Assembly (NCBI GenBank): GCA_029261065.1
Contig: JAJDCB010000026.1
Location: forward strand, 18,715-82,714
Length of the DNA: 64,000 bases
From: Candidatus Omnitrophota bacterium
GTDB lineage: Bacteria; Omnitrophota; Gorgyraeia; Zapsychrales; Zapsychraceae
Direction: 5' to 3'
Part shown: positions 1 through 24,085 of the stretch, one piece after another
Position numbering within the stretch: the first letter of the stretch is position 1
How the letters are laid out: the number at the start of each line of letters is the position of its first letter
Translations under genes and position numbers: made by a program
Notes under the pieces: model-generated
What the model saw: only the letters and a program-made list of their open reading frames with translations
The model's database searches: none
What the model was told of the DNA's origin: nothing

Positions 1-638
1 CAAACGAGGCCCCCATGGCTACAAGAAGAATGACAGCATCGCACAACCTTTCAAAATTTTCCGGAAGAGCCTTAGAAACATATTTTTGAAAAAGTTGTCT
101 AAAGAGTGGAGCCATTCCCATTTCTTTGTGTAGAGCATGTAAAAAAATTAAACCCGCATGATCAATCTGTTCTCCATCAACAGTGGGCGCCATTTGAAAA
201 CTACTTGCAACATCATCTTTTATGATTTGTGGTTTGAAAGTATCCTCGACGGAGTTTTGGGTAATTTCCTTCGAATGAACTTTCGGAGATTCTTTTAACT
301 TTGGTTTGGTTCTCGGCTTGTCCTTCTTCTCGATTTTTAAGGCGGCTTCTTCCGAGGGCTTAAATCCAAATTTTTTAAAAGTGGAAGAAAGTTGTTCCTT
401 TTTGGCTTGTGGGATAGTAAATTTTTTGGCGGCACTTACGTTTCTGCCGCGCCTTCCCACCGAACTACTAAGCTGTGATTTTTTTAAAATGGTATTAATC
501 GATGACTTTGAAACTTTTACCTCAAAACATTCATAGACCAGCTCTGAGAGTTTACGACAACTCACACCTGGATCATTTTTCTTTGTATCAACAATAAATG
601 ATACAACTTCATCTTTAAGTTTATATATAACACCCATA
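1..638 (-). CDS. Partial ORF running off the window start (stop not seen). N-terminal HTH-like segment; possible transposase-like or regulator protein
   Basis: Reverse-strand ATG at 636-638 gives MGVIYKLKDEVVSFIVDTKKNDPGVSCRKLSELVYECFEVKVSKSSINTILKK..., open through coordinate 1. It is absent from the ORF track only because it has no stop in the window. The +306..536 ORF lies inside it. Confidence 0.4.
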
Positions 639-712
639 ATTTAATACCTTACCAAAATTTTTTGCGATATACGATTCCGAGCTCTCTTCGAAAAAAGAAA
701 AATTGAGTTACT

Positions 713-1123
713 TTACTTGTCCTTCTTTTTAATTACGATGTGATCGCCCACAGAGGTTTTACTTGAAGAAATGACGCCAACGGGTAACTCAATGGCGTAA
801 TTAGCCTTCCAATATATGGCACTTAATCGATTAGGTTTAATATCATTAACTATACCTACCACATAATTTTCTTTATTAAGAAAAATAACATCAATAGAAA
901 ATTCCATAAAAAACATATGAATAGAATTACACTTTGTGATAATTAGGGCCTCATCCTTAAATAATTTCTTTCTCCCAAGCAATCCTTTCATACGTGTCCA
1001 AAAGGTGTTGGCGAGTAAGCCATTGTCGGCGAGAGATGTATTTTTGGTTTGGTTAAGAATTTGAAAGGATAAGTCTTTATGGCTTTGAGATGATTGTAAG
1101 TGGTTGCTCATTTGAAGCCACAC
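713..1123 (-). CDS. DUF192 (COG1430) family protein
   Basis: Motifs MKGLLGR...IHMFFM...IDVIFLNKENYVVGI...AIELPVGV...VGDHIV match the DUF192 pattern. Co-oriented immediately downstream of the cpaF-like gene. Confidence 0.55.
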   Translation of the reverse strand: MWLQMSNHLQSSQSHKDLSFQILNQTKNTSLADNGLLANTFWTRMKGLLGRKKLFKDEALIITKCNSIHMFFMEFSIDVIFLNKENYVVGIVNDIKPNRLSAIYWKANYAIELPVGVISSSKTSVGDHIVIKKKDK

Positions 1124-1198
1124 GCCTTTGAGGTTTTGGATAAATACTTGTGAGGCGCGATCCTTTTACTGTGGTTATTTTTTTTACGGAGGAAAAAG

Positions 1199-3370
1199 CT
1201 ACGAGTCTTTTTTGTTAAATATATTTTTATCCATTTGAAGACCTCGGGTAATAAAATCATCGTAACATTTTGGAATATAACCTGTGGTTTGATAATCACC
1301 CAAGACGACACCACCTTCACCAATGCCTGCCTGCTTATAAACAAAAACATCTGCAAGCTCCAATTGAAACTCTTTATCTAACCCAAGCGTTTCAGTAATT
1401 CCGGTAATTTTTCGTGTCCCATCAGACATCCTATTAACATGCACAACAATTTGAATAGCTGAGGAAATCATCTCGTTAATAGCACGAACGGGAAGCTCGA
1501 CACCACTTAACAAAATGAGAGAATGCAACCTTGTAATCGCATCTCTTGTGGAGTTGGCATGAAGGGTTGTCATGGATCCATCGTGCCCCGTGTTCATAGC
1601 TTGAAGCATATCTAAAACCTCGCCCCCTCGACACTCACCAATGAGGATTCGGTCCGGTCTCATACGAAGACTGTTAACAAATAAATCTCTAATAGTAACA
1701 GCACCTCGTCCTTCAACGTTCGGTGGACGAGTTTCTAACCGCCCCCAATGACTCTTTTTCAAACGTAACTCAGCAGCATCTTCAATGGTTAAAATACGTT
1801 CCTCGTCGGGGATAAATTCCGAGATAACATTAAGCAGGGTTGTCTTACCAGCACCCGTTCCCCCCGATACAATAATATTTTTTCGCGTCAAAACACACGC
1901 TTTAATAAAATCTCTCATATCAACCGTTAAACTTTTATATTTTTCTAATAAGTCTGTTGATTCTAATTTTTCATGAGCAAATTTTCGAATCGTAATCATA
2001 GGACCATTTAATGAAAGTGGTGGGATAATGGCATTAACACGAGATCCGTCGGGTAAACGGGCATCAACCATAGGTGTTGACTCATCAATTCTTCTTCCAA
2101 GAGGGGCGATGATTCTATCAATAATGGCTCTCATCTTGTCATTCGATATAAATTTTCTATTTGTAAAAACAAGCTTACCGCTTTTCTCAACGTAAATTGT
2201 GTCTTTATTGTTAGCCATAATATCCGTGACTTCTGGATCTGCCAAAAACTCCTCCAAAGGTCCTAAACCAAGGGCTTCATTAACGATATCCTTTACTAAA
2301 CGCGTCCGCTCATCGTGTGAACCTATGGTTCCCCCACTTTCTTCCAATAAAAGGTTTCCAACAATTTCTTCTGAACTCTTCTTAACTTTTAGAGCGGCAC
2401 TCGGATCGCTTAATGTATCAATCGTAATACCATCTAAATTCAATCTTTCGACGAGCTTTTCATGAATTTTTTGTTTGAGTGCGAAAATTTCGGATTCTTC
2501 TGTTGTATACCCCGCATCCGGTCCCGGTCCCGAAGGTACACCTGTGGTAACACCAAACTTTTGCCAAAATTTATCTGGTTGCTCTAAACCTTCTGTTGTT
2601 CGTAATGTTTCGGTATCCGCTGGCTTTACAAAAATGGCTTCCTTAATTAGCATACTAATTGTTTTAACAAAAGCCTCTGTAACTTTACTTCGAGGGCTAT
2701 CAACGACACAAGGAATCCCTTGATTTAATGCAATTCCAACCGTTTTACCATCAGATGGAATGTGACTAAATATTTCACAAGGCAAGGCCGAACGCACTTC
2801 CTGCCAGGCAACACTACCTCGAGATTCAGAACGATTTAAGATAAGCTTAACCATCTTTAGAGGATATTGTAAGTTTTGCAAAACCTCCAAACACCACTTT
2901 ATTTGGTAAACAGCAAGAATGTCTGGGGTTGCGATTAGAAGAATGAGGTTGGAGTAATCAAGAACAGCAATCAAGTTTTCTGAAAAAGACTTACCTGCGT
3001 CGACAAAAATGTAATCATAGGCAGTGATAGCTTTTTTAAAAAATAATTTTATATTGTCTGGAGTAACTAAACTAATTTGTTGAGCATTTTTTATAGCTGG
3101 TAGGAAATCTATACCGCAGGAATGGGTTGTTACAAAACTTTTAACAGCATTTGGATCATCATTGCCTTCCAGTTGTCCTATGACATCAGCGATGCAATTT
3201 CTGGGTGATAAATTAAGCATGCGAGCCATGTCTTGGCTAGCCTGAAAATCAAGATCTATTAAAAGAACTTTTTTCCCTGTTAAGGACATTGCTGCCGCTA
3301 GATTAACAGTTGCAAAGGTCTTTCCAACACCCCCCTTAGAACTAAATATTGTTATAATTTTACAATCCAT
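1199..3370 (-). CDS. Fusion protein: N-terminal ParA/MinD-like (TadZ/CpaE-like) P-loop ATPase plus C-terminal CpaF/TadA (VirB11/GspE superfamily) secretion ATPase
   Basis: N-terminus has the deviant Walker [12 protein letters not shown] Gly/Pro linker follows ([14 protein letters not shown]). The C-terminal half has Walker [13 protein letters not shown] plus [18 protein letters not shown] and [14 protein letters not shown] motifs typical of CpaF/TadA. Confidence 0.8.
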
Positions 3371-3519
3371 AATCTAAAATTATGTTACAAACCTTTTGTT
3401 ATAATTGACTACTCATTTTTGATTTATATAATCTATCAAATGCGCAGTCTCTTTGCAAGTACGTTGTCTTCTTAGGTAAAAAGCTAGAAATTTCAGGTCT
3501 CTTTATAACAAATTAAATA

Positions 3520-5184
3520 CTAATTTTTTTGTAAACTATAAACAATAGGTATAGTGACATTTAATTCTTGCAGATCGGAGTTGGCGGGAAAACTAGAAAA
3601 TGGAGCAGAATTTTTTGCTGTTTCTAAAGCAATATCATCAAAAATATTGCGACCCGAAGATTCTTTAACCAAAGCAAAAGCAAGTGTTCCATCGTTAAGA
3701 ATAAGCATTCCAACCTTGACTGTTCCTTCCCATCCGTACCTTAAGGCTTCTTCTGGATAAACAACGCCTTTAGATATTTGTTTCTGAATGCTTCGCACAT
3801 AGGCTGTCATTTCGCGGGGAATCCCAGAATAATAAGGGGCAACATCTTTTATCGTTGGCGTCGCTAATCTTTGCGACTGAGAACTTTCATTACCCATCAT
3901 GGATGTCTTTGCGTTATCATCACTTTGTTCGTTATTATCTTCTTTTTCTGTAGATAAATCATTACGATACTTATGTAAAATACGAGGCGTTAGTGAAATA
4001 ACGATTTCCGTATCTGTTTCCGGCGTTGGCATAGATTTGCTACGGAAGAGAGCTCCGACGACAGGTACATTTCCTAGGAAAGGAACCTTTTTAATGCTCT
4101 CAGAACGTAATTCTCTAATTAATCCGGCCATAATAGTTGTTTGCCCATCGTCCAAAAATAAATGTGTCTGAGCACTTCTTGTGACAAAGGCGACATCATC
4201 ACCAACGGCATTGGCAGCATCAATATCGCTAATTTCAACACTCATTGAAATGTCAATTTTTTCTTTAATAATCGTTGGTGTAATCGACATAGATACACCA
4301 TATTCTTTATAAGCAACATTTGCTGATGTAACACCTTCAGATGTTGTGGTTGTTCTTACAGGAACTTCTCCACCTACTAAAAATGTTGCCTGCTCGCCAC
4401 TACTAACAAGTAGTTTTGGCTTTGACAACACTCGTCCTTTTCCTTCTTCTAATAAGGCATTAATTACGGACAATAAAGGCGTTGTGCGTCTAAAATCACC
4501 GATTTTAAAATAATCTGAAACGGAACCATCTAGGCTTGGCAATGTTTCCGCATATTTTAATATAATTCTACTATCGGCACCTGTTGACCAATCAAAACCT
4601 AAACTTTTAGTCAGAGTCGTATTAAGCTCTGTTACCTGCATATTAATTTCAAGTAAGTCGTCAATTTCTTCAAGTTTTGCCAGGTTTATAATATGATCGT
4701 CAAAAGGCGTTAAGATTTGATCTAAGTGATCTTCTCTATGTTCTGGAATGTACCCAGAAACAATAATTCGTCCTTCTTTTTTATTTATGTCTAAATCAAT
4801 CTTCGTAATTCTCGCGGAATCCAAAAGTTTTTGAATTCTCTTTTTAATATACTCTAGATCTTCTGCTGTTACATTAATGACAATTGGTCTCTTTCCATTT
4901 TCATCCCAAACAAATAAAGTTGTAATACCAACACTTTGCGCGACAAGTAAAATTTCATTGTCGTCGGCATCAACAATGTCGACAATATCTGGATCTGTTA
5001 TAGAAAGTCTTGTTAAGGTGTATACCTTTAATGTCACAAGTTCACCTTTGACCATTTGAACTTCATTTATATAGACGGTATCTATAACCTCGCTAAGTGC
5101 GTTTTTAGCAAGAAATGGCGCTGATACCATTGTGAGGACGATTAAAAAAGTAAAAAAGATCTGAGTATACGAATGTTTTTTCAT
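3520..5184 (-). CDS. CpaC/RcpA-type secretin with a C-terminal TonB_C-like domain
   Basis: Signal peptide, then a pilus-formation N-terminal (BON-like) region. Secretin core (KPKLLVSSGEQATFLVGGEVPV...). C-terminal ~95 aa has the TonB C-terminal pattern (YPEEALRYGWEGTVKVGMLILNDGTL...VKESSGRNIFDDIALETAKNSAPFSSFP...IPIVYSL). Confidence 0.75.
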   Translation of the reverse strand: MKKHSYTQIFFTFLIVLTMVSAPFLAKNALSEVIDTVYINEVQMVKGELVTLKVYTLTRLSITDPDIVDIVDADDNEILLVAQSVGITTLFVWDENGKRPIVINVTAEDLEYIKKRIQKLLDSARITKIDLDINKKEGRIIVSGYIPEHREDHLDQILTPFDDHIINLAKLEEIDDLLEINMQVTELNTTLTKSLGFDWSTGADSRIILKYAETLPSLDGSVSDYFKIGDFRRTTPLLSVINALLEEGKGRVLSKPKLLVSSGEQATFLVGGEVPVRTTTTSEGVTSANVAYKEYGVSMSITPTIIKEKIDISMSVEISDIDAANAVGDDVAFVTRSAQTHLFLDDGQTTIMAGLIRELRSESIKKVPFLGNVPVVGALFRSKSMPTPETDTEIVISLTPRILHKYRNDLSTEKEDNNEQSDDNAKTSMMGNESSQSQRLATPTIKDVAPYYSGIPREMTAYVRSIQKQISKGVVYPEEALRYGWEGTVKVGMLILNDGTLAFALVKESSGRNIFDDIALETAKNSAPFSSFPANSDLQELNVTIPIVYSLQKN

Positions 5185-5187
5185 GGT

Positions 5188-6033
5188 TTACAACTCTCTT
5201 CCTGCTCTAAAAATTTGAATGAATGGTTCCACTTCATCAGAATCATCGTCAGAAACCTCATTGACCACGATACTAGATTTTGGTAGATCCAACTCTGTTC
5301 CTTGTCTCTCAAGAACATAATCTGCAAGAGCATCCCAAGAGGCAACTTGCATTTCTTTAGTGGACCTTTCAGAAGGGGACCTTAGTGTTAATTGTAGGCG
5401 TCCAAAAGACTGCGCAAAGGATAGAAGCGAGGCTTCTTCTGGATTAACGGCAAGTGTTACATTTAATTGTTTAGTTTGTTGTTGTGTTTGATAGAGTACG
5501 GCGTTTCCAACGGGCTTAAAATTTGCCCCAACAGCAAGGACTTGAACATTTTGAAATAACACACTTGTTACTTTTGTGTTATCTTGTGATTCGCCTGGTT
5601 TAGGAATTTTTAAATGGCCAATGATGTCAACAAAATCACCTGGATTAATCAAACCGCCAACCGCAGACAACGAATCAAGCAATACGGTCATCGCTCGTTT
5701 CCCAGGCGGAGTTACTACTGAGAAAACAGTGCTGTCGACTATTTCTTTTGGTGCTCCCGGACCAACATTACCTGCTCCACGTGGTTGGGAGGCGAGATGT
5801 TTTTGTTGTTTTGCTAAAGAAACTTGATTTTGTTCTAACTTCTTTAGTTGTCCTCTTAATCCTTCAAATTCTTGAATAATTTTAGAGCTTTTCTTCTCAT
5901 AATTTTTTACGATAATCTTACGTTGTTCGTCAATACTACTCTTAACATATTGTGCTGTTAAATAGGCTGCAACCAAACCTAATCCTATCGCTAAAGCTAA
6001 TGTTGCAAACTGTTTTTTATTTTCAATATTCAT
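5188..6033 (-). CDS. CpaB/RcpC-like Flp pilus assembly protein
   Basis: N-terminal TM segment, coiled coil, and a C-terminal RcpC-like region (...LNVTLAVNPEEASLLSFAQSFGRLQLTLRSP). Stop overlaps the cpaC start (translational coupling). Confidence 0.55.
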   Translation of the reverse strand: MNIENKKQFATLALAIGLGLVAAYLTAQYVKSSIDEQRKIIVKNYEKKSSKIIQEFEGLRGQLKKLEQNQVSLAKQQKHLASQPRGAGNVGPGAPKEIVDSTVFSVVTPPGKRAMTVLLDSLSAVGGLINPGDFVDIIGHLKIPKPGESQDNTKVTSVLFQNVQVLAVGANFKPVGNAVLYQTQQQTKQLNVTLAVNPEEASLLSFAQSFGRLQLTLRSPSERSTKEMQVASWDALADYVLERQGTELDLPKSSIVVNEVSDDDSDEVEPFIQIFRAGREL

Positions 6034-6088
6034 AACATAAACCTCTTTACGTAAACTTTAAGATATTTGGACTGCCAAGAACATTAAT

Positions 6089-7048
6089 CTATTTCAATAG
6101 ATCGCTGTTTATCTCTACAGAACCTTTTTCTCTTAATTCATTGATATATTCAAGGATCACTTTTTGCTGCTTATCCAACGTAATTTGCTGAATAATTGTA
6201 TTTTTAACCTCTTCAAAAGGAATCTGTTCTCCGCCTTGCTTATCTTCCAGCTTAATGATGTAGTAACCATCCGGACCTTGAAAAACATCACTTGTCTCTC
6301 CCTCACTAAGAGCTAATAAAGGAGCAGCCATTTGCTCAAAAGGAACATCATTAATAAAACCCAAATCTCCGCCCTTAAGCGACGTGTCACTTTTTGAGTG
6401 CTCTCTTGCTAAAGATGCAAAGTCTTCACCACTTTGGATTTTTAACTTTATCTCATTTGCTTTGGATTCGGAATCGAGCTTGATTTCGCGAACTTGCCAT
6501 TGCCCAGGCTGTGTTATTAAATCTTTGTTGAGATCATAAAACTCTCTGGCCTCATCGCTCGATACTTTAACATCTTCGACAAGACCTCGAGCAAGTTCTC
6601 TAACAATAACTGTTCGGCGAAATTCTTCGACTGCGGCGACAATATCTTTACTATTGGCTAAGCCTGATCTTTCGGCCTCATTAACTAATAGCTGTTGTCT
6701 TACCAACTCTTCTAAGACTAACTCGCGAGCTTCTAAATTTGAAAGATCAAAATCTGGAACAACTTCTTTTAAGGCTTCTAGCCTATCATTAAATTCTTCT
6801 AAGGTTAAAGACCAATTGCCAACAACCGCAACCGTGTTGCCTGTTAAGGTAGGTTGACTTTTAGCTTTTTCTTTCGGTGCTTCGGACTGTTGTTTTTCTT
6901 CCTTGGCAGTATTCTTTTCTTCTGTTTTGGAAAAACGATCTTTGATGCTTTTAAAAACTTCACAACCCAACGAGCTTGTAACTGTAATAAAGCAAAAAAG
7001 AATTAAAAATGCGTGGTACTTGTGGTGCCCAATTTTATTCTTTTTCAT
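6089..7048 (-). CDS. Secreted parvulin-type peptidyl-prolyl cis-trans isomerase (SurA/PrsA-like)
   Basis: Signal peptide. The rotamase domain has FASLAREHSKSDTSLKGGDLGF...DVFQGPDGYYIIKL. First gene of the minus-strand cpaB-cpaC cluster. Confidence 0.7.
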   Translation of the reverse strand: MKKNKIGHHKYHAFLILFCFITVTSSLGCEVFKSIKDRFSKTEEKNTAKEEKQQSEAPKEKAKSQPTLTGNTVAVVGNWSLTLEEFNDRLEALKEVVPDFDLSNLEARELVLEELVRQQLLVNEAERSGLANSKDIVAAVEEFRRTVIVRELARGLVEDVKVSSDEAREFYDLNKDLITQPGQWQVREIKLDSESKANEIKLKIQSGEDFASLAREHSKSDTSLKGGDLGFINDVPFEQMAAPLLALSEGETSDVFQGPDGYYIIKLEDKQGGEQIPFEEVKNTIIQQITLDKQQKVILEYINELREKGSVEINSDLLK

Positions 7049-7428
7049 TTTTTAAAACCTGTTTCTTTCTATAAATCGGTCATATATGACTGTTTAGGTC
7101 AATAATATTATTAAGTATACCCGCTCGATCAGCAAAAGACAAGGGCAATCCAGAAAATTCATATTTTTTCTGGAAATACCTCACCGAATTCGATAAAAAT
7201 TCCCCTTCTGATTGAATTCGCCCTATCATTTACCCGAGTAATTATAATTTTAATGGAAAATTATGCTCTTGTCATCATAAAATGCCTATTTTTTGAGCAA
7301 GAAAATCGCCGACAGAGATAACTTTAGGTGTATTTTTGGTGCCGATAGGAAGATATTACAATTTTTATACTTTCCTATACGGCAAAAAATTCTATTCCAA
7401 AATAAAATAATTCGTGATTTTGAACCCC

Positions 7429-8415
7429 TTAAGTCAAAAGCTCTTTAACCGCCTCTCTTTCAGAAATGAGCTCCTTATGTGTCACGTCAATTTTCTGCTG
7501 AGAGAAATCATTATGCTCTACTCCTTGGACAACCTCCCATTTTTCTCCATCTGTTCGAATAGGATAACTAAAGATTAGCCCTTCCTCCACACCATAGCTT
7601 CCATCCGAACATACTGCAACAGAGAAGCTTTCGCCACTTTTGGTGGGAGTAGATAGATTACGAACGGTGTCAACAACAGCATTAGCCGCTGAGGCCGCTG
7701 ATGATAGCCCTCGCGCTGCTATGATAGCCGCACCGCGTTTCTGTACGGTCTCTAGAAACTCCGTTTGAAGCCAATTCTCATCCGTAATGACCTCATTAGC
7801 CGGCTTGCCCCCAATCATGGCATTATAAATATCGGGGTATTGCGTTGCAGAATGATTGCCCCAGATAATGAGATTTTTGATCTCTGTGACATCCACCTGT
7901 GCCTTTTGCGAAATTTGAGCATATGCTCTATTTTGGTCAAGCATGGTCAGAGCAAACACATTTTTGGGGTCAATATTCTTAGCGGCATGTTTTGCAATGA
8001 AAGCGTTTGTGTTGCAAGGGTTTCCAACAACTAGCACCTTACAGCTTGGCTTAGCATTATCGGAAATGGCCTTTCCCTGGGCTGTAAATATGCCCCCGTT
8101 TATTTTAAGCAGATCGCCACGCTCCATACCAGCCTTTCTTGGAACACTTCCAACCAACAAGCACCAATCAGCATCCTTAAAGGCCACATTAGCATCAGCA
8201 CTTTGGGTAACGCTCTTTAATAAAGGGAAGGAGCAATCATCTAATTCCATGACAACCCCTTTTAAAGCTGGAAGGGCGGCCTCCAATTCCAGCAGATTAA
8301 GATGGACTTCTGTATCCGCTCCAAACATCTGGCCTGAAGCAATTCTAAATAATAACGCATATCCAATTTGTCCGGCAGATCCCGTGACAGCAACTCTTAC
8401 TGACTTCTTCGACAT
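7429..8415 (-). CDS. mdh: Malate dehydrogenase (NAD-dependent, LDH-like/cytosolic type 2 family)
   Basis: [21 protein letters not shown] Rossmann motif and IWGNHS catalytic region. Confidence 0.85.
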
Positions 8416-8465
8416 TTCTTTCTCCTTTTGATAATACTGATAATGTTGTGCTTACTACATTTATT

Positions 8466-8501
8466 TAGGAATTTCGAAGCTTTAACAAAATTCCAGATTG
8501 G
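8466..8501. repeat. Intergenic hairpin repeat, family A copy 1 (TAGGAATTTCGAAGCTTTAaCaAAATTCCAGATTGG)
   Basis: Near-identical to copies at 41195 and 47792. Inverted-repeat stem GGAATTT/AAATTCC. Confidence 0.7.
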
Positions 8502-8555
8502 TTTAATGCCCCGTGGCTTGCTGCGGATAATTGAGTCCAAAGCTTACTTTTGGGT

Positions 8556-9362
8556 TCATACCCTTGATTTTCGAACACTAGGTAAAATCTTTCTACAACG
8601 CACCAATTCCTTCATATCCAATTTGGCATAGATGATCTCTTCTCTATTATTAGAAGCCTTCGCAAGAATCTCTCCCCAAGGGCTAACAATCATACTATTA
8701 CCATAAAGTTTAATCCCTCGATTGTCTGTGCCCAATTGATTTGGCGCCAAAACATAACAAAGGTTTTCAATAGCGCGAGCCCTAACTAATATTTTCCAAT
8801 GAGCTTCGCCTGTTTTTTGTGTAAAGGCGGAAGGGATCGCAAGGATGTGGGCCCCATCTTGTGCATAACTCTGATACAAATTAGGAAAACGCAAATCATA
8901 ACAAATAGAAAGTCCACATTTAAATTTATCAACTTTTGAAAGGGTTCGTTTTTTTCCTTTTAAAAAATTATTAGACTCCCTAATCTTTTTCTGGCCTAAC
9001 AGAGCATCAAACATATTTATCTTTCGATACTTTGCTTGAATCTGCCCCTTAGGATTGATTAAAAGAGATGTGTTGTAAACCTTTCTCTGTGTGGACACCT
9101 TTTCATAAATTGATCCTGCTAATACGTGTATTTTTCTTTTTTTAGCAAGGTCTTTTATGGGATTTATCGACGGGCCAGGTGTTGACTCTGCGATCGATTG
9201 CAATAAAGTTTTATTCGCTATTGCCCCGCGATAAGAGAAAACTTCCGGTAGTAAAATAAATTTTGCGCGAGCATCAGCCGCTCGATTAATAAAGTCTAGA
9301 GCTTTATCGATATTTTTTTGTTTATTGTTCTGTGCATTTAGTTGTATCAAAGCTGTTTTCAT
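8556..9362 (-). CDS. Carbon-nitrogen hydrolase family protein (nitrilase/amidase superfamily)
   Basis: LPEVF (Glu), KINMFD (Lys) and ICYDLRFP (Cys) catalytic-triad contexts. Confidence 0.75.
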   Translation of the reverse strand: MKTALIQLNAQNNKQKNIDKALDFINRAADARAKFILLPEVFSYRGAIANKTLLQSIAESTPGPSINPIKDLAKKRKIHVLAGSIYEKVSTQRKVYNTSLLINPKGQIQAKYRKINMFDALLGQKKIRESNNFLKGKKRTLSKVDKFKCGLSICYDLRFPNLYQSYAQDGAHILAIPSAFTQKTGEAHWKILVRARAIENLCYVLAPNQLGTDNRGIKLYGNSMIVSPWGEILAKASNNREEIIYAKLDMKELVRCRKILPSVRKSRV

Positions 9363-12232: not shown

Positions 12233-13338
12233 AGACTCCCTTGATACCTTGGGCTAAGCCCACCTTATTTGAAAAAGAAAAAGAATACATGTTAGCGGCC
12301 CTTGAGTCGACATGGATCTCAGATGGTAGCTTTGTTGATCAATTCGAAAAAAACTTATCTAATCTTCATAACAACCTTAAGTGCGTGACCACATCAAGTG
12401 GAACCGCAGCACTTCAACTTGCCTTGTTAGCTCTCAATATTGGCGAAGGTGATGACGTAATCGTACCAGGATACACTTTTGCTGGCCCCATCAATATGGT
12501 TTTGGCTCAAAAAGCCCGTCCCGTTTTTGTAGATATTAATCCTCATACATGGTGCATCGATGCTGCAACCCTTGAACTACACATAACACCACAAACTAAA
12601 GCTATCCTCCTCGTTCATATTTATGGTAATGTTTGCAACATAGATAGTATTCGCGAGATTGCCAACAAACACAACTTGGTCATAATCGAAGATGCCGCTC
12701 AAGCTATCTTTTCAAAATACAAAAATCAATATGCAGGAACCTTTGGCGACATCGGTTGTTTTAGCACGCAAGCTACAAAAACAATTACAACGGGCGAAGG
12801 TGGTTTTATTATGACGCCACATAAACACTTAGATGAAAAATGTCGCATTATCCGCAATCATGGCGTAACACCCAACAAAAAATATTGGCATGAACGTTTA
12901 GGTTTTAACTTTCGTTTAACAAATATACAGGCGGCGTTAGGTTGCGCCCAATTAGAAAACATGCGCTCTCTTACAAAAGACAAAAAAAGAGTGCATGTTC
13001 GATATAAAAACGAGTTAAAAGATTTTGAAAAAATTCGTTTTCAAGAATTTACCGATGATGTTGCTCCCGTCATTTGGAGTACCACCATTCAACTGCATGA
13101 TCAATTTACATCTACACAACGTAACACTATTATTGAAAAGATGCTGACGAATAACATAGAATGTCGTCCGGGATATTACGCGTTTAACGATATGCCCCTT
13201 TATAATGCCCCAGAGCTTAAAGAGTCCATTAAAGTCAGCCAAAGCACCATAAGTTTGCCTTCATATCCATCGTTGTCAGACAGCGACATTAATTTCGTTG
13301 CTCAAACACTCAAAAATATAATATCAAATGACTTATAA
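12229..13338 (+). CDS. DegT/DnrJ/EryC1/StrS-family PLP-dependent sugar aminotransferase (ArnB-like)
   Basis: Full-length similarity pattern (TSSGTAALQLAL...GDIGCFSTQATKTITTGEGG). Confidence 0.85.
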   Translation: MKTPLIPWAKPTLFEKEKEYMLAALESTWISDGSFVDQFEKNLSNLHNNLKCVTTSSGTAALQLALLALNIGEGDDVIVPGYTFAGPINMVLAQKARPVFVDINPHTWCIDAATLELHITPQTKAILLVHIYGNVCNIDSIREIANKHNLVIIEDAAQAIFSKYKNQYAGTFGDIGCFSTQATKTITTGEGGFIMTPHKHLDEKCRIIRNHGVTPNKKYWHERLGFNFRLTNIQAALGCAQLENMRSLTKDKKRVHVRYKNELKDFEKIRFQEFTDDVAPVIWSTTIQLHDQFTSTQRNTIIEKMLTNNIECRPGYYAFNDMPLYNAPELKESIKVSQSTISLPSYPSLSDSDINFVAQTLKNIISNDL

Positions 13339-14087
13339 TGATCGACAAAACTTCAAAAACTGTCTCAATCGTCCTCCCTGCTTATAACGAATGTGAGTCT
13401 ATCTCTCCTCTTATTCAAACCATTCAATCAGAACTAAATGATACACGTTTAGAAATTATCGTAGTTGATGATGCTAGCCCTGACTTTACTGGTAAAAAGA
13501 TTGAAGATACTCATCTAAAAAATGTGACGGTACTTTTTAATGCACCACGAATAGGTTTGGCTAAATCTATTCGTCGAGGTATTGAAAAAACAACAGGTGA
13601 TTATATTGTCATTATGGACTCTGATGGTAACCATCAACCCCAATATTTAAAATCTATGATTCAAAAACTAAATCAGTATGATTGTATTAGCGCATCACGT
13701 TTTCTCAATAACGAGGTTCAACACAAAACATCACAAAGTCATGCGGTATCCAACCCCTGGCGCTTTCGGACAACGAAGATATTTAATAAAATCACTCGGT
13801 CTCTTCTTAAGGGAACCATTACAGATTATTTTTATGGATTTCTTATCATTAACAAAAAATGTTTAGAATTATGCGACTATACTCATATATTCTATGGTTA
13901 CGGTGATTATTGTATGCGGTTACTAAACGCTTTACAAAAACAAAACGTCAACATTTCCGAAATTCCCGTCATTAACGGCCCTCGTCTTGCTGGCGTAGGT
14001 AACAAAAACTTTGCTCCCATATTTGCTCAGTATTCTAACGAGGTTCTAAAAACATTTTTTAATAATTCAAAAAGGTCTCATGTATAA
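13338..14087 (+). CDS. Family 2 glycosyltransferase (DPM1/ArnC/GtrB-like polyprenyl-phosphate sugar transferase type)
   Basis: SIVLPAYNE...VVDDASPD...MDSDGNHQP motifs. Confidence 0.75.
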   Translation: MIDKTSKTVSIVLPAYNECESISPLIQTIQSELNDTRLEIIVVDDASPDFTGKKIEDTHLKNVTVLFNAPRIGLAKSIRRGIEKTTGDYIVIMDSDGNHQPQYLKSMIQKLNQYDCISASRFLNNEVQHKTSQSHAVSNPWRFRTTKIFNKITRSLLKGTITDYFYGFLIINKKCLELCDYTHIFYGYGDYCMRLLNALQKQNVNISEIPVINGPRLAGVGNKNFAPIFAQYSNEVLKTFFNNSKRSHV

Positions 14088-15324
14088 AGAAGTGCATCAA
14101 TGCCGCATTTGTGGTAACAAAAACCTAATACCCATCATCGATTTAGGGGAACATCATTTAACAAGTTTATTTCCTCGTACAAAATCGACCCCCATTCCCC
14201 TGGCACCACTTACATTGATTAAATGTTCTGGCAATACAGGCTGTGGTTTTGTGCAACTGAAACATACCGTTGAGCCTAAATACTTATATACCGATAATTA
14301 TGGCTACCGCTCCGGACTTAACATAACCATCGTCAATCATCTTAAAGAAGCCTTTAAATATTTAACAACGATTGTTTCTCTTAAAGACAAGGATCTTATC
14401 ATCGATATCGGTAGTAACGATGGGACTTTTTTAAATTTCTTTGAACAAAAATACGATTTGTTGGGTATTGATCCTTTAATAAAAAAATTTGAAAACTGTT
14501 ACACTGAAGGCACCCATCTCATATCGGACTTCTTCACAGAAGATACCATTCATTCGTACCTCAAAAACCGTAGAGCTAAAATTATCACCTCTTTCTCTAT
14601 GTTTTATGACGTCGACAATCCTCTCGCGTTTATGAAAACCATAACGGAATCCTTGGCTAATAATGGTGTCTGGTTATTGGAACAAAACTATTTACCAACG
14701 ATGTTGAAACAAACAGCATACGATACTATTTGCCATGAACACATCGGTTATTATTGTCTTAAACAAATCCAGTGGATGGCAGATAAAGTTGATTTAAAAG
14801 TTGTTGATGTATTTTTAACGGATCTTAATGGCGGGAGTTTTTCGGTAACACTTGCACATAAAAGCTCTTCTCTAGAGGTAGCCACAAAAAAAATCGAGAA
14901 CTTTGTAAAAAACGAGGAAGAATTCTTTAACGATGCCAGCTTAATATCTTCATTCACCCATCGCGTTGCCCAACACAAAATTGACATGAAACAATTGTTA
15001 AAAGAATTGAAGCATCAAAACAAAAAAGTTGTAGGCTTTGGGGCCTCTACAAAGGGAAACGTTATTCTTCAATATTGCCAGGTTACCCCTGAAGAATTAA
15101 CTTGTATCGTTGAGGTCAACGAAGAAAAATTTGATATGCTAACACCAGGCACTCACATCCCAATCGTATCCCAAGAAAAACTAAAAGATCTTAACCCCGA
15201 TTACATATTAGTCCTCCCTTGGCATTTAAAAAACTTTATTCTCAAAGAAGGAGCTCGCTTATTCCCTCCAAAAGCTTCCATTATCTTTACGCTACCGAAT
15301 ATTGAAATTGCAAAAAATAACTAA
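14080..15324 (+). CDS. Sugar C-methyltransferase-like protein (N-terminal zinc ribbon plus SAM methyltransferase plus C-terminal domain)
   Basis: CRICGNKN...C..C zinc ribbon. DIGSNDGTF SAM motif. About 410 aa, typical of the TylC3/NovU-type family. Confidence 0.55.
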   Translation: MYKEVHQCRICGNKNLIPIIDLGEHHLTSLFPRTKSTPIPLAPLTLIKCSGNTGCGFVQLKHTVEPKYLYTDNYGYRSGLNITIVNHLKEAFKYLTTIVSLKDKDLIIDIGSNDGTFLNFFEQKYDLLGIDPLIKKFENCYTEGTHLISDFFTEDTIHSYLKNRRAKIITSFSMFYDVDNPLAFMKTITESLANNGVWLLEQNYLPTMLKQTAYDTICHEHIGYYCLKQIQWMADKVDLKVVDVFLTDLNGGSFSVTLAHKSSSLEVATKKIENFVKNEEEFFNDASLISSFTHRVAQHKIDMKQLLKELKHQNKKVVGFGASTKGNVILQYCQVTPEELTCIVEVNEEKFDMLTPGTHIPIVSQEKLKDLNPDYILVLPWHLKNFILKEGARLFPPKASIIFTLPNIEIAKNN

Positions 15325-15341
15325 AGCTTCTTACGGATTCA

Positions 15342-17282
15342 TTATTTTCGATTAAGTTTATAGAGAGCAAAAAGATCCGAAATATAAACAAGCGATAATG
15401 TTTTGGTTGGTTTTGGCGCTTCTCCTCGAAAAAAGACTATATAATCGACATTATAATCCCGAATCGCTCGCATGACAGCTTGCTTGTACGATGCGCGCGG
15501 TGCGTTAAATTTAAAACTACCTAAATGCTCTAGCTTAACCAAATAGTCTTTAATCGATGCGATATCAAGAGCAAACGTTCCTGTGTCGGCTTCGGAAAAA
15601 ACTAAACTGCGTTGGGCATGCAAACGAAACGTATTGTAAGGAATCTCTGGAAATAAAAAGAGGGCGTCTTTCTCTGTGTGTGTGCGGATATGTTTGCCCA
15701 GCACCTCAACATCTTTATGAATAAGTTCAATAGGGGTTCGGGCACGCCTCATATCCTTAATATGACGCCCTGTGTATCCACTCAAAAAAACACACAGCGG
15801 AATAAGTAGCATTATACGAAGAATCATTACCTTAGCCCCCTGCGGAACAAAATAATACACAAAGGCCGATAAAAGCATCAGCCAGCTGACAAGTACAAAG
15901 AGAGGCGATTGAAAAGGATTCGCGTGAACCAGCTGGCACATTTTGATAAGACCCCAAATAATAATACCTGTGCTAAAAAGCACGCACAGACAAAGCTTGG
16001 GCCAAACACGTATATAATATTTCAATCCCCATCCACGAAGAGCCTCTGCTGGCATACTTGATGATACCCCTTCTTTATTTACTTGCACGACACCTGTAAA
16101 AATCCAAATCGGTAAAAGTAATATTAAAAAACCAATAGAACTAAAATCTTTGTTCGTAAATGTCAGCATAGCAAAACCCATCACTACCCCTAACAAAAGA
16201 TTTTGTCTCTCTCCTAAAGCCTTCCAACATCCACTGATATATATCCCGATAAGAATAAATGAAAGAATACCGATTTGACGATTTAAAAGTAAACACAACA
16301 CTGTTAAATTTGGATGTATGTAGCTAGCCCAAAATTGCAGAACCAAACTTAAGAAAATAATAACACCCATAACATGAAACTTAGGTTGAGAGCGAAACTC
16401 TTTTGAAATTAATAAACTTGTTCCGTAAAGAGTAATAAGAAAAATTATAAATTTTAAACTAATCAAACCTTGAAAAAATGAACTAAAGGCCTCTGATAAC
16501 GGAAGCCTGCCGAAAAAGAAAAAGTAGGGGGCATAGTGTCTTATAAGCTTAAAAAATTCCGCAAACTCTTCTGGACCAAGTCCAGCCGACGTCCCTGTTT
16601 TGGACCTCAGATAAAAAATGACAACCGGCAAACTAAACAGCGTAAACAGGCCTATGGATTCTAAACATACACGAAATTTGTGTCGCAACTTTAATAAAAG
16701 ATAAGTAACAAGATAAAACATCGGAAAGAGTGCAAAGACAAGATGAATATTCATGGTAACACCTAAAATGATTGACGCTGTACGGTATCTGCTTTTAAAG
16801 AAATAATATAATCCGGCAAACATAGGCGCCAAGGCAAACTCAGCGTGCGAAAATGTCCGATACAAAAACATCTCAGAACGAAGAACGACCATAAACCCTA
16901 AAACACAGAACAAACTTAAAACGCGCTTTTTAGTTATCAAAAGCCAAAATTTATACATCCAAAAAAACATTAACAGACGGGAAACAAAAAAGAGAAGGGC
17001 GTAAACAGGTTTAATGTGCTCAGTTAGGACGATTCTACCCAAACTTTTGTAAAAAAAGGTAAGGTAATGAGCATGTTTCGTCTGTACGTAATCATCACGT
17101 GGATACAACTCCGGATCAATCGCCATCTTTAAAAACGGAATCTCAATCAACTGATCATCCATAGCATAACGATACCCGTGACTTATGTAAAAAATTCCGG
17201 TTATAAGCAAGGCGAAAAATAAGGGGTGGGATAAAATAGAAAAAAATGAGTGTTTTTTTAATTTCATTGGACTTCTAAACAT
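15342..17282 (-). CDS. Large polytopic membrane protein, possible GT-C-fold glycosyltransferase (ArnT/PMT-like)
   Basis: More than 12 predicted TM helices. Acidic DD motif in the first extracytoplasmic loop (YRYAMDDQLIEIPF). C-terminal soluble domain. Convergent with the sugar-modification operon. Confidence 0.35.
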   Translation of the reverse strand: MFRSPMKLKKHSFFSILSHPLFFALLITGIFYISHGYRYAMDDQLIEIPFLKMAIDPELYPRDDYVQTKHAHYLTFFYKSLGRIVLTEHIKPVYALLFFVSRLLMFFWMYKFWLLITKKRVLSLFCVLGFMVVLRSEMFLYRTFSHAEFALAPMFAGLYYFFKSRYRTASIILGVTMNIHLVFALFPMFYLVTYLLLKLRHKFRVCLESIGLFTLFSLPVVIFYLRSKTGTSAGLGPEEFAEFFKLIRHYAPYFFFFGRLPLSEAFSSFFQGLISLKFIIFLITLYGTSLLISKEFRSQPKFHVMGVIIFLSLVLQFWASYIHPNLTVLCLLLNRQIGILSFILIGIYISGCWKALGERQNLLLGVVMGFAMLTFTNKDFSSIGFLILLLPIWIFTGVVQVNKEGVSSSMPAEALRGWGLKYYIRVWPKLCLCVLFSTGIIIWGLIKMCQLVHANPFQSPLFVLVSWLMLLSAFVYYFVPQGAKVMILRIMLLIPLCVFLSGYTGRHIKDMRRARTPIELIHKDVEVLGKHIRTHTEKDALFLFPEIPYNTFRLHAQRSLVFSEADTGTFALDIASIKDYLVKLEHLGSFKFNAPRASYKQAVMRAIRDYNVDYIVFFRGEAPKPTKTLSLVYISDLFALYKLNRK

Positions 17283-17401
17283 AAAGACATATTACATCCA
17301 GATACACCGTAGGACAAGAATGAAAAGAATGAAATCTTAAAAATTTATTCTAACTGAAAAAAAGCCATCCTTCCTAATGGAAAAATGGCTTTTTGAAAAA
17401 A

Positions 17402-17475
17402 CGACCCCAGAGGGATTTGAACCCGCGCTGCCAGAATGAAAATCTGGTGTCCTGACCGGGCTAGACGATGGGGTC
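17402..17475 (-). tRNA. tRNA-Glu (anticodon UUC)
   Basis: Cloverleaf folded by hand: acceptor GACCCCA/TGGGGTC, anticodon loop TTTTCAT, T-loop TTCAAAT. Confidence 0.85.
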
Positions 17476-17539
17476 AAAATGAATTTTGTTATTATATTTA
17501 AGATTCAATTTTCGTCAAGTAAAATATTTTTCGGCGAAT

Positions 17540-19993
17540 TTATGCTTCGTCTTTATGCACGACATTGGCAATGGAGCTTACAATGTCATCTTTACTTAAA
17601 TTAATGAGTTTAACACCAACCGCACTGCGTCCTGTTTGACGAACGTCACTTGGGGCACATCTAACAACCATGCCTTGTTTGGTTACTGTCATAACTTCAT
17701 CACCTTCGACAACAGCTAAAACGCCAACAACAGGTCCGTTACGATCTGTGACCTTAACGTTAATTATACCTTTTCCTCCACGAGACTGTGTTCGGTAATC
17801 TTCAAAATTAGATCTTTTAGCATATCCTTTTTCTGTTACCGATAAAAGAGTGCTTCCTGTTTTACTGATGTCTGGTGGGAAGACTTGCATGCTGACGACT
17901 TGATCGGATTTTCTAAGACCAATTCCCTTAACTCCTTTTGCGCCTCGTCCCATATCTCGTATTTGCTTCTCAGAGAAACGCAAAGATTTACCTTCCTTCG
18001 TTGCCAAAAGAACATCATATTTTCCTGTGCTTAAAGATGTTCCTATTAAAGCATCCCCTTTGTCCAATGTGATTCCTACAATTCCCGATTTGCGAGGATT
18101 GCTAAAGGCGGAAAGTTTTGTCTTTTTAACATTTCCCTTGGCTGTTGCCATAACAAGAGACATGGTGTCTGTAAATTCTTTGACCGCTACAATGGAGCTA
18201 ATATTTTCATCCTTTGCCAAAGATAGCAGATTAACAATATTTTTTCCCTTAGCATGTCTTGCCGCTATTGGTATCTCATAAACTTTAAGCCAGCGAATAA
18301 TACCTTTGTTTGAGAAGACAAGTAGATAATCTTTAGATGATGCGACAAATAATTGTCTGACAAAATCTTCTTCTCGCGTTGTCATCGCAGCAACACCCTT
18401 ACCACCACGTTTTTGTTTTCGATACGATGAAACGGCTAACCGCTTGATATATCCGGCATTACTAATCGTAATCGCCATGTCTTCTTCAGCAATTAAATCT
18501 TCTATTTCAATTTCTTCCGCTTTTGCCGCAATCTCTGTTCGACGCGGATTAGAATATTTTTTCTTAATAGCAGCTAATTCATCTTTAACTATATCATTTA
18601 TCATTTGCTCAGATGCTAAAATAGAGCGGTAGAGATCGATATCTTTTAATAAGGCCTTATATTCATCATCAATTTTATGTTGTTCTAGAGCTGTTAGCCT
18701 TTGCAGTTGCATTTCCAAAATGGCTTGCGCTTGGATTTCGGAAAGTTTAAAATTTTTCATCAAATTGACTTTAGCGATCGACGACGATTTTGACTCACGA
18801 ATCGTTTTAATAACTTGATTAATAAAGTCTAAAGCAATTTTCAATCCTTCTAGGATATGAGCTCTTCTAAGGGCTTTGTCTAAATCAAATTGTGTACGAC
18901 GACGGACAACAACACGACGATGTACGATAAAGTTTGAACATATTTGTTTAAGATTTAAAATTTGTGGACTGTTGTTTACAAGGGCAAGATTAATAACACC
19001 GAAGGTTGTTTCCAATTGTGTATGTTTGTACAAATAATTAAGAACGATTTGTGGCTGAACATCTCGGCGTAGTTCGATAACAATACGAATACCATCTTTA
19101 TCAGATTCATCACGAAGATCTGTAATGCCATCAATTTTTTTAAGTTGAACAAGTTTTGCGATAGCCTCTATCAAATTGGATTTATTAACCTGATATGGGA
19201 TTTCCGTAACAACAATCGTATCTTTATTTGCCTTTTGTCGTTCAATCGTTGCTCGCGCACGAACAGTTAGCTTGCCGCGCCCCGTTTCCTGAGCATTTTT
19301 GATTCCTTCTCGACCACAAATAATCCCACCTGTAGGGAAATCCGGACCCTTTACAAACTTAGCTAGCTGTTTGATTGTCGCCTCTGGCGTATCAATTAAA
19401 TGAGTGATCGCATCAATAGACTCACCCAAATTATGCGGAGGCATATTTGTGGCCATACCAACGGCAATTCCACTAGAACCATTGATAAGTAAATTTGGAA
19501 TAACAGATGGCAGACAGGTTGGTTCTTTTAAAGAGCCATCGTAATTAGGGACAAAATCAACCGTGTTCTTTTCAATATCATTTAACATCTCATGAGCAAT
19601 ACCGGTAAGTCGGGCTTCCGTATAACGCATCGCGGCCGCAGCATCCCCGTCGACAGAACCAAAATTTCCTTGGCCATCCACTAAAGGGTATCTCATGCTA
19701 AATTCCTGAGCCATGCGCACCAAGGTATCATAAATCGCTGAATCCCCATGAGGATGATATCCCCCCATAACGTCCCCAACGATCTTCGCACATTTTCTAA
19801 ACGGTTTGTTTGGAGCTAAACCCATGGCATGCATCCCATAAAGGATACGTCTATGTACAGGTTTTAAACCATCTCTGACATCCGGTAAGGCCCTTCCGAC
19901 AATAACACTCATCGAATAAGAAAGATAAGAGCTCTTCATCTCTTCTTCTATAAAAACAGGAACTATTTTTTCTCGAATAGATAAATCACGCAT
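17540..19993 (-). CDS. gyrA: DNA gyrase subunit A
   Basis: AMRYTEARL active-site Tyr region. 817 aa. Confidence 0.95.
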
Positions 19994-20015
19994 TGCTTCT
20001 TACCTTTCACCTTTA

Positions 20016-22798
<2,783 letters not shown>

Positions 22799-22848
22799 AA
22801 AGAATCAAAAATTTCTAGTCAATTTTATTTTTATTTAAACTTCGGGAT

Positions 22849-23937: not shown

Positions 23938-24085
23938 TGTTAATACATCCTCCTATTATACTAAGGTATAATGTCCCCAATTAGTATTAGTCTAAGTAGG
24001 CCCTGTGGAAAACTAGAACAACTTCGAAAACAATTTAAAACAAACAACTTATAGAAAAAAATCCCGTTAATAACCTTGGGATGAA

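Follow-up and report, generated by a model that had tools for sequence, protein, structure and literature searches.

The 64-kb stretch of DNA analysed here (the window) comes from an Omnitrophota MAG and covers its oriC region. Its first 7,048 nucleotides contain five complete ORFs and one partial ORF, all on the minus strand, with coordinates exactly as given in an earlier note on this DNA (Table 1). Pfam and NCBIfam profile searches confirmed the gene and domain calls that the note had made for all five proteins. The remaining ORFs of the window are housekeeping-like, as judged by their N-terminal sequences only.

Table 1 Features at the start of the window
Feature	Position	Strand	Characteristics
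HTH protein, first 212 codons of 598 aa	1..637	-	weak Tc3-type HTH
DUF192 (COG1430) protein, ~132-136 aa	713..1123	-	PF02643, 62 bits; without signal peptide
TadZA-type fusion ATPase, 723 aa	1199..3370	-	MinD/ParA-type P-loop domain, linker and CpaF/TadA motor
Spacer between secretin and ATPase genes, 149 nt	3371..3519	-	AT-rich; without terminator-like site
Tad-type secretin, RcpA/CpaC-like, 554 aa	3520..5184	-	PF13629, PF00263, PF03544
CpaB/RcpC periplasmic alignment protein, 281 aa	5188..6033	-	RcpC domain, CpaB profile
Parvulin-type PPIase, SurA/PrsA-like, 319 aa	6089..7048	-	N-terminal signal peptide, possible lipobox (..SSLGC)
Spacer between malate dehydrogenase and PPIase genes, 380 nt	7049..7428	-	no ORF

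The PPIase matches Rotamase_2 (67 bits), Rotamase and Rotamase_3, and weakly SurA_N. It is encoded by the conserved first gene of the locus, in the same position in the Omnitrophota loci L002, L004, L005 and L090. The CpaB/RcpC protein scores 92 bits against RcpC (PF16976) and 102 bits against the CpaB profile TIGR03177, which has a cut-off of 71; the latter match spans profile positions 107-221 only, leaving the N-terminal SAF part unmatched. Its N-terminal membrane anchor is followed by a stretch resembling a coiled coil, at the place where SAF normally matches, and then by the RcpC domain. The DUF192 protein has no sequence match in the PDB, and a literature search returned no functional study of DUF192. 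Its gene directly follows that of the ATPase in L001 (a contig of the source genome), L002, L003, L005 and L090, and is present as an uncalled ORF in L004.

The secretin consists of a T2SS-T3SS_pil_N domain (PF13629), a Secretin domain (PF00263, 138 bits) and, at residues 474-551, a TonB_C domain (PF03544, 53 bits), in agreement with the domain fusion that the note had proposed. Its closest solved structures are 8jvb and RcpA 8odn. The TonB domain forms the C-terminal end (residues ~452-553) behind a low-complexity linker of ~70 residues, and this end matches the TonB C-terminal domain structures 6sly and 5lw8. The same three domains are present in all 120 of the best homologues. A TonB energy transducer comprises an N-terminal membrane anchor that binds ExbBD, a proline-rich spacer and a C-terminal TonB domain. 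Only the last of these is found here, the rest of the protein being a secretin, which rules out such a transducer; the PGAP name 'TonB family protein' is a mislabelling that affects the secretins of this family.

The ATPase combines AAA_31/CbiA/ParA matches at residues 3-250 with a T2SSE match of 199 bits at residues 367-644, bearing out the proposed fusion of a TadZ-like domain with CpaF. The motor half retains intact Walker A, GECRGGE and His box motifs, and its residues 324-711 align with residues 102-489 of Caulobacter CpaF (E 4e-110, 372 bits). The N-terminal domain has a canonical deviant Walker A motif (SKGGVGKT) and its sequence resembles MinD more closely than it does any TadZ of solved structure: residues 4-249 match MinD 4v03 (E about 1e-16 to 2e-17), and no chain named TadZ or CpaE occurs among the best 60 of 86 PDB matches at E <= 1. 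Pfam finds no TadZ_N match in the protein, the P-loop domain beginning at residue 3. The best 120 homologues are 65-72% identical (P0072 lacks alignment figures), and all of those with an organism name are from Omnitrophota. The motor motifs are kept in 118-120 of these 120 proteins and the N-domain Walker A, KGGVGK[TS], in 118. No separate TadZ gene was found in the loci of relatives examined. We ruled out that the MinD/ParA::CpaF fusion is unique to Omnitrophota, as it also occurs in other Tad loci and in the TadZA of Bdellovibrio: full-length relatives with 37-49% identity fall in at least 45 separate clusters, including Bdellovibrionaceae and Elusimicrobiota, and those examined sit in Tad loci that have no separate TadZ.

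A CpaF-type ATPase, an RcpA-type secretin and a CpaB equivalog above cut-off together uphold the note's assignment to a Tad/Cpa-type system. Its alternative of a distinct secretin-ATPase system is wrong. The components with a family assignment are all Tad-type. The 149-nt gap between the secretin and ATPase genes, which the note had pointed out, is real. Its greater length is lineage-specific, because the corresponding junction measures 25-57 nt in L002, L004 and L005. The genes of the locus are presumably co-transcribed. The spacer upstream of the PPIase gene might hold the promoter for the promoter-proximal half of the locus, and on its minus strand two sites, 7275-7247 (10/12) and 7288-7260, are sigma-70-like. 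We offer this only as a suggestion because such sites are no commoner in the region than in shuffled sequence: promoter and terminator scans of positions 1-8600 gave numbers of sites not above shuffles. An Rfam search of positions 1-9000 returned no match.

The note had described a module without pilins or platform. Within the window itself a six-frame motif scan found no class III/Flp signal, and no T2SSF or Peptidase_A24 match was obtained among the doubtful ORFs scanned. The contig L001 shares 4141 nt with the window without a single mismatch and continues for 4.8 kb past the window start. It carries the complete 598-aa HTH protein followed by eight co-oriented pilin-like genes of the Flp/class III signal type, the first of which begins ~1.7 kb past window position 1. 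The pilin N termini, which span 1.7-4.6 kb beyond the window, are of the KKGQSxxEY type and lead into a hydrophobic helix; positions 5835-6005 of L001 match Flp_Fap (E 7e-6) and positions 6038-6247 score 30.8 bits with Class_IIIsignal, above its gathering score of 23.7. The sequence of L001 stops inside the eighth of these genes. Its last complete pilin (8360-8680) has no relative among the genome and metagenome contigs searched. In the predicted cytoplasmic HTH protein, a Tc3-like HTH at the N terminus is joined by a disordered linker to an alpha/beta body without a confident structural relative; the protein is Omnitrophota-specific and fast-evolving.

In relatives, the same gene string ends with the platform genes. 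TadB and TadC close it in L004 and L005 and are also present in L089, and by synteny the source genome would be expected to encode both. The string is unbroken in five further contiguous loci (L002+L072, L003, L004, L005 and L090), although L002 and L003 probably derive from one organism because their ATPases are identical (P0070). In the 34 TadB-anchored Omnitrophota loci, which are the long ones examined out of 80 fetched, pilin-like ORFs lie upstream of TadB and TadC lies downstream. The platform consists of two half-size T2SSF proteins of ~290-300 aa each. Each locus has 6-11 pilin-like genes (median 9, 34 loci), indicating that the system is expanded rather than 'reduced', as the note had termed it. 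The L001 pilins show, and the TadB/TadC of the relatives suggest, that the apparent lack of pilins and platform stems from the window edge rather than from the locus itself, which in this truncated form mimicked a stripped-down machine. Of the four genes sought beyond the window start, flp is present in L001, tadB and tadC are supported by synteny only, and tadV was not found. The lack of TadV in the locus that the note had reported thus stands, with no A24 peptidase among the scanned window ORFs or in the loci of relatives. In 12 relatives the stretch that separates TadC from the giant ORF likewise holds only sporadic insertions and no prepilin peptidase. TadD TPR lipoprotein or RcpB-like calls were absent from the loci of relatives examined.

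A self-standing secretin-CpaB-ATPase module that has no pilins or platform of its own, or whose parts are scattered through the genome, would account for the absence of pilin, T2SSF and A24 genes from the 64-kb window. Dispersed parts have a parallel in the tad genes of Bdellovibrio (bioRxiv 10.64898/2026.07.08.737194). They also occur within the phylum: in L089 the HTH-pilin-TadBC half is detached and has other neighbours than the secretin-ATPase half, so that contiguity is not universal. This part of the note's proposal therefore has a precedent, but it does not apply to the readable part of the source genome, in which the pilin genes come directly next on the same strand. With five more contiguous loci showing the uninterrupted string, we consider a reduced or scattered module to have almost no likelihood.

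Taken together, these data make it very probable that positions 1-7048 are the promoter-proximal third of a conserved Omnitrophota Tad (type IVc pilus) locus. The full order would be PPIase, CpaB/RcpC, secretin::TonB_C, TadZ-like::CpaF ('TadZA'), DUF192, the ~600-aa HTH protein, two short Flp-type pilins, about five mid-size pilin-like proteins, TadE/G-like pseudopilins, TadB and TadC. The whole order is seen in L002+L072, L004, L005 and L090. In relatives the locus measures ~18 kb in all, lies near the replication origin and encodes pseudopilins of ~450-600 aa and ~830-1700 aa. A giant gene usually follows TadC.

Homology with characterised Tad machines leads us to propose the following mechanism. 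The CpaF hexamer would drive the assembly, and probably also the retraction, of an Flp filament on the TadB/TadC platform, and the filament would be threaded through a ring of CpaB and the pore of the secretin. In place of a separate TadZ/CpaE, the MinD/ParA-type domain fused to the motor may link it to the control of positioning or assembly, as Bdellovibrio TadZA does. Processing of the prepilins would fall to a peptidase whose gene lies outside the locus, presumably the type IVa PilD. The PPIase, in the periplasm, probably assists the folding or assembly of envelope components, and TonB_C probably serves as a periplasmic anchor or docking domain of the secretin, replacing the absent TadD/RcpB or pilotin. 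We guessed the roles of the PPIase, DUF192 protein, HTH protein and TonB_C domain from their position and fold. Biologically, the machine most likely serves contact with and attachment to host or prey cells, given that a predatory or parasitic lifestyle has been proposed for the phylum and that a giant surface-protein gene adjoins the locus.

An alternative function is a type II-like secretion or deployment machine, in which the many pilin-like proteins would form a short pseudopilus that pushes or presents effectors, such as the adjacent giant protein, through the secretin. A co-oriented giant ORF follows TadC in 31 of the 34 TadB-anchored loci, the pilin-like genes are unusually numerous and include the pseudopilins of 830-1700 aa, and the Tad-like Kil system of Myxococcus serves contact-dependent killing rather than plain adhesion (PMC8460266). 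West-Roberts 2023 (bioRxiv 10.1101/2023.11.21.568195) also terms the locus 'type II secretion system-like' and places it before giant genes across the phylum. However, none of the family-assigned components is of T2SS type. The ATPase scores 372 bits against CpaF but ~36 bits against GspE, the pilins carry Flp/class III signals and not the GspG type, the platform is split into two half-size T2SSF proteins, and the secretin matches Tad secretins best. Moreover, West-Roberts 2023 describes the giant proteins as having many transmembrane segments and SecA-like domains, features more in keeping with insertion into a membrane than with transit through a secretin. We therefore regard secretion as an unlikely main function, although the pilus and secretion roles are not mutually exclusive. 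Membership of the T2SS family proper was rejected, as the ATPase is not of GspE type, the platform is two proteins of ~290-300 aa instead of a single full-length GspF, and the pilins are not of GspG type; GspC, GspL and GspM gave no matches in the loci of relatives examined.

A competence or twitching pilus unrelated to host or prey is very improbable. The Tad pili of Liberibacter are reported to serve in DNA uptake and twitching. Separately, a single CpaF is reported to be able to drive both extension and retraction. Against this, comEA, comEC and dprA are absent from the locus in the relatives examined, and the conserved neighbour is a giant surface-protein gene. Omnitrophota also have type IVa pili, the usual competence and twitching pili, according to Seymour 2023 (PMC10066038).

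Within the preferred reading of a Tad pilus for cell contact, TonB_C might be more than a passive anchor, pairing by a beta-strand with a TonB-box-like segment of a partner, and the DUF192 protein and the fast-evolving protein with its transposase-like HTH might be dedicated Tad accessory factors of a predatory or parasitic lineage. We hold this extension to be rather improbable. The partner could be the giant protein, CpaB or an outer-membrane barrel; if true, such docking would be a new mode of secretin gating or coupling that replaces pilotins, RcpB and TadD.

Compared with canonical Tad/Cpa systems (Caulobacter cpa, Aggregatibacter and Pseudomonas tad-rcp), the Omnitrophota locus shares the CpaF motor, the RcpA-type secretin, CpaB/RcpC, Flp pilins with a G-x4-EY motif, TadE/F/G-like pseudopilins, and TadB and TadC. 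By contrast, the canonical systems have a separate TadZ/CpaE with an ARD, encode TadV/CpaA in the locus, possess TadD, RcpB or CpaD, and lack the PPIase, DUF192, the HTH protein and the secretin TonB_C domain; their pilin-like genes are far fewer. The Kil system of Myxococcus xanthus (Seef 2021, PMC8460266) is likewise a Tad-derived machine of a predator, with an N-terminal fusion on its ATPase, a dispensable prepilin peptidase and no TadD or RcpB. As a further point of resemblance, it encodes an uncharacterised cytoplasmic multidomain protein, KilD, directly after the ATPase gene. Kil differs in that the fused domain is FHA (FHA::CpaF) rather than MinD/ParA, the genes form two clusters, and the short secretin has neither N0 nor TonB_C.

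The Tad system of Bdellovibrio bacteriovorus, which is essential for prey attachment and invasion (bioRxiv 10.64898/2026.07.08.737194), resembles that of Omnitrophota in its TadZA fusion architecture without an ARD, the lack of TadV in its tad loci, its several flp genes, its TadG and its predatory context. Over its full length, the window ATPase shares 40% identity with a protein cluster to which a 751-aa 'TadA' of Bdellovibrionaceae belongs. The tad genes of Bdellovibrio are spread over several loci, whereas those of Omnitrophota form one string. In the Bdellovibrionota-type locus L086 the secretin lacks TonB_C, and no PPIase, DUF192 or HTH protein was seen. The N-domain Walker A of Omnitrophota is the canonical KGGVGK[TS], as opposed to the TadZ consensus K/RGGxGxS/T.

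A locus of this type has already been published, and the present finding is largely ordinary. In Seymour 2023 (PMC10066038), a complete Tad complex is reported, and reported to be expressed, in V. archaeovorus LiM at 12382-29832; Omnitrophota TadB/TadC cluster with those of Bdellovibrionales, and Velamenicoccia RcpA groups with RcpA of the predatory Stigmatella, Vulgatibacter and Lysobacter. According to West-Roberts 2023, a conserved locus of more than ten genes lies upstream of the giant genes; it encodes a Rotamase_2 PPIase and contains rcpC, homologues of gspD/E/F and genes with class III signals. Of the parts of this giant-gene-associated locus, we found those up to and including the pilins in the source genome and the T2SSF and giant genes in relatives only. 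TonB, secretin and CpaF are not named in the available text of these two papers, figures aside, so that the secretin::TonB_C and MinD::CpaF fusions are apparently not discussed in either; PMC9324843 and PMC10469934 mention Tad and hold nothing specific on Omnitrophota Tad genes. The secretin::TonB_C fusion and the presence of DUF192 and a fast-evolving HTH protein in a Tad locus seem not to have been described so far. What is new is confined to details, namely the TonB_C domain on every secretin of the family, a fused TadZ domain whose Walker A is of the canonical MinD type, and the constant presence of accessory genes for DUF192 and the HTH protein. Such details could guide annotation and structural work on nanobacterial host attachment and do not define a new kind of system. 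Like the published locus, the one described here is the Tad system that Omnitrophota, an uncultured phylum of presumed predators or parasites, conserve near the replication origin, with the same components, an extent of ~17.5-18 kb and adjoining giant genes downstream in relatives; the two differ in nothing substantive, the window holding another genome's copy that is cut by its edge.

Listing and translation of the ORFs at the window start recover the five minus-strand genes, all in one orientation, and the cut-off sixth gene of the earlier note, and profile searches confirm each of its domain assignments. A six-frame motif scan of the whole window finds no Flp or class III signal, and no T2SSF or A24 protein is present among its unclear ORFs, so that the reported absence of pilin, platform and peptidase genes is correct for the window itself. 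The description of a module without pilin and platform is nevertheless an artefact of the window edge, because pilin genes lie beyond the window start on another contig of the same genome, and relatives encode TadB and TadC.

Features of the Tad locus and of other parts of the window (window coordinates unless stated)
Feature	Position	Strand	Evidence or remark
Parvulin PPIase	7048-6089	minus	Rotamase_2, 67 bits; weak SurA-like N-domain
CpaB/RcpC	6033-5188	minus	TIGR03177, 102 bits (cut-off 71)
Secretin with TonB_C	5184-3520	minus	PF13629; PF00263, 138 bits; TonB_C, aa 474-551, 53 bits
Fusion ATPase, 723 aa	3370-1199	minus	MinD/ParA-type P-loop domain, aa 3-250; T2SSE, 199 bits
DUF192	1123-713	minus	62 bits
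Start of HTH protein	637-1	minus	Weak Tc3-type HTH
HTH-flp spacer	L001 5302-5834		Beyond window; 534 nt, non-coding
tRNA-Glu	17401-17476		
Origin region	17540-30070		
dnaA-, dnaN-, gyrB-, gyrA-like ORFs	17.5-25.4 kb	minus	N-terminal sequences and synteny
tRNA-Cys, tRNA-Leu, tRNA-Val cluster	33045-33978		
89-aa ORF	33929-34198		Overlaps tRNA-Val; probably spurious
6S RNA	43821-43978	plus	Rfam, 50.5 bits (gathering score 46.4)
MgsA-type AAA+ ATPase	43895-45352		Long ORF; 5' end overlapped by 6S RNA
5-Formyltetrahydrofolate cyclo-ligase	45510-46073		
Stand-alone PilZ-domain protein	48768-49151	plus	52 bits

The same-genome contig (L001) was found by exact-protein look-up. Its reverse complement overlaps window positions 1-4141 with no mismatch and then continues for 4810 nt beyond the window, completing the edge gene as a 598-aa ORF. 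After the spacer 3' of this HTH gene follow eight co-oriented genes whose products begin K-K-G-Q-S-x-x-E-Y and continue into a hydrophobic helix. One of them scores above the Pfam Class_IIIsignal gathering threshold and a second matches Flp_Fap (E 7e-6). The first pilin gene thus lies ~1.7 kb past the window start and points the same way as the operon. The spacer, which measures 238-743 nt in four relatives (L002, L004, L005 and L090), is likely to hold a separate pilin promoter and is a candidate target of the HTH protein. This protein has only 34 detectable homologues, with full-length alignments at 24-31% identity; its AF2 model is of fair quality (pLDDT 77.5), and the only clear structural match in the prediction is the Tc3-like HTH.

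Homologue neighbourhoods in loci of relatives (L002, L003, L004, L005 and L090) share one conserved gene string, preceded, as in the window, by 2-hydroxyacid dehydrogenase, CN-hydrolase and malate dehydrogenase genes. The string runs from PPIase, RcpC, secretin::TonB_C, MinD::CpaF and DUF192 (an uncalled ORF in L004) to an unannotated protein of ~550-660 aa, two short pilins and about five pilin-like proteins of 100-150 aa. Proteins of ~410-620, ~100, ~830-1700 and ~110 aa come next, and TadB then TadC end it. The large proteins of the string also have class III-type signals at their N-termini and are therefore TadE/G-like. From this string we infer that the window genome encodes TadB and TadC.

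A TadB alignment, scanned against the species genomes of GTDB, recovered 80 loci, of which nearly all carry an Omnitrophota label. All 34 with long flanks, the set used for counting, have pilin-like ORFs upstream of TadB (6-11, median 9), and in 31 TadC is followed after 0.5-4 kb by the start of a co-oriented giant ORF. These giant ORFs (in L011-L083 at ~11.8-20.8 kb in locus coordinates, for example L072 13175-20819) run off the 10-kb flank, with >1800-2900 codons still open at the locus end. They physically link the Tad locus of these relatives to the giant genes of the phylum. The interval between TadC and the giant ORF contains nothing conserved and no peptidase in the 12 relatives inspected for it. 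One further locus, L089 (GCA_005239675.1, 1-21773), has the HTH protein, pilins and TadB/TadC in a different neighbourhood, preceded by RNase Y, YmdB, PilZ, gltX and an ABC transporter, with no secretin, ATPase or DUF192 genes there. The locus can thus break immediately upstream of the HTH gene, which suggests two transcription units with their boundary at that point. The housekeeping genes that precede this half in L089 lie at ~46-50 kb in the window.

The C-terminal part of the fusion ATPase aligns with residues 102-489 of Caulobacter CpaF (E 4e-110) and its N-terminal domain with MinD (E 1e-16) among solved structures. Named proteins among its best 120 homologues are from Omnitrophota MAGs (~720 aa, 65-72% identical). 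A full-library search extends full-length fusion relatives, at 37-49% identity, to 45 or more distinct clusters (formed at 50% identity), including Bdellovibrionaceae and Elusimicrobiota proteins; two that we examined (L086 and L087) belong to Tad-type loci without a separate TadZ. The N-domain has a canonical xKGGVGK[TS] motif in 118/120 Omnitrophota homologues, whereas many distant MinD/TadZ::CpaF fusions (P0159-P0294) have a degenerate, TadZ-like Walker A such as AKGGVGQT or GKSGVGTS. As read from these motifs, the contrast hints at a difference in ATP hydrolysis by the fused domain. A CbiA::T2SSE fusion ATPase in L088 (1-20228) adjoins Cas1, a RAMP protein and a Ser/Thr kinase, along with a pair of FHA proteins, another T2SSE ATPase and a single T2SSF, and represents a different system, Kil-like or unknown.

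Solved structures place the secretin closest to the Tad secretins 8jvb and RcpA 8odn, and match its tail to TonB C-terminal domains. The TonB_C fusion occurs in 120/120 best homologues (P0312-P0431), many of which PGAP, the NCBI pipeline, names "TonB family protein", and the literature searched yielded no discussion of it. As deposited, the secretin of the window genome (P0312, 536 aa) falls 18 codons short of our ORF, so that this call loses the beginning of the signal peptide.

The window covers the replication-origin region: near 24 kb the GC skew switches sign, the minus strand has dnaA-, dnaN-, gyrB- and gyrA-like ORFs, and the plus strand carries yidC-, parA- and parB-like ORFs, names that derive only from N-terminal sequences and synteny. 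The Tad locus, which lies close to the origin here and is oriented with replication, adjoins gyrA in L002 and L004, and in V. archaeovorus LiM it is found at 12-30 kb. Elsewhere in the window, the MgsA-type ORF, whose 5' end 6S RNA overlaps, probably has its true start further downstream.

By homology with known Tad systems, a TadB/TadC platform would carry a CpaF hexamer that polymerises, and probably also retracts, Flp pilins by way of a CpaB ring and the secretin. The fused MinD-type domain would replace TadZ and couple the motor to the control of positioning or assembly, and a peptidase encoded elsewhere would cleave the prepilins. The PPIase, TonB_C domain, DUF192 and HTH protein may be lineage-specific accessory factors, with possible roles in envelope folding (PPIase), periplasmic docking (TonB_C) and regulation of the pilin unit (HTH protein). 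Contact with host or prey cells is the likeliest task of the machine, perhaps in concert with the giant protein encoded next to it; the main rival is that the locus serves a secretion-type function.

Both the locus and its motor have published precedents. Seymour et al. (2023, PMC10066038) credit V. archaeovorus LiM with a complete Tad complex (12382-29832, 17.45 kb), said to be expressed in co-culture, and report Omnitrophota TadB and TadC that group with Bdellovibrionales counterparts; the LiM complex has the same size and origin-proximal position as the present locus. West-Roberts et al. (2023, bioRxiv 10.1101/2023.11.21.568195) report a conserved secretion locus of >10 genes upstream of giant genes, in which gspD/E/F homologues and rcpC occur with a gene for a Rotamase_2 PPIase and numerous small genes bearing class III signals, and mention conserved pilZ genes near giant-gene loci. 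The window has a stand-alone PilZ-domain protein, and a PilZ::T2SSE protein lies upstream in L005.

A 2026 preprint describes for Bdellovibrio bacteriovorus a "TadZA" in which a ParA/MinD-like TadZ region without ARD is joined by a linker to TadA and which binds to or otherwise interacts with RomR, a polarity hub; it also reports tad loci that lack TadV and a machine that the predator needs in order to attach to and invade its prey (bioRxiv 10.64898/2026.07.08.737194). The secretin of the Bdellovibrionota-type locus L086, unlike that of Omnitrophota, lacks TonB_C. A further precedent is the Myxococcus Kil system, whose CpaF has an N-terminal fusion, whose peptidase is dispensable and which lacks TadD and RcpB (PMC8460266). 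Little is new beyond the TonB_C fusion of the secretin and two or three accessory genes that lack an explanation; the published Omnitrophota Tad locus is present here in a further copy, and its fusion ATPase has a described Bdellovibrio counterpart.
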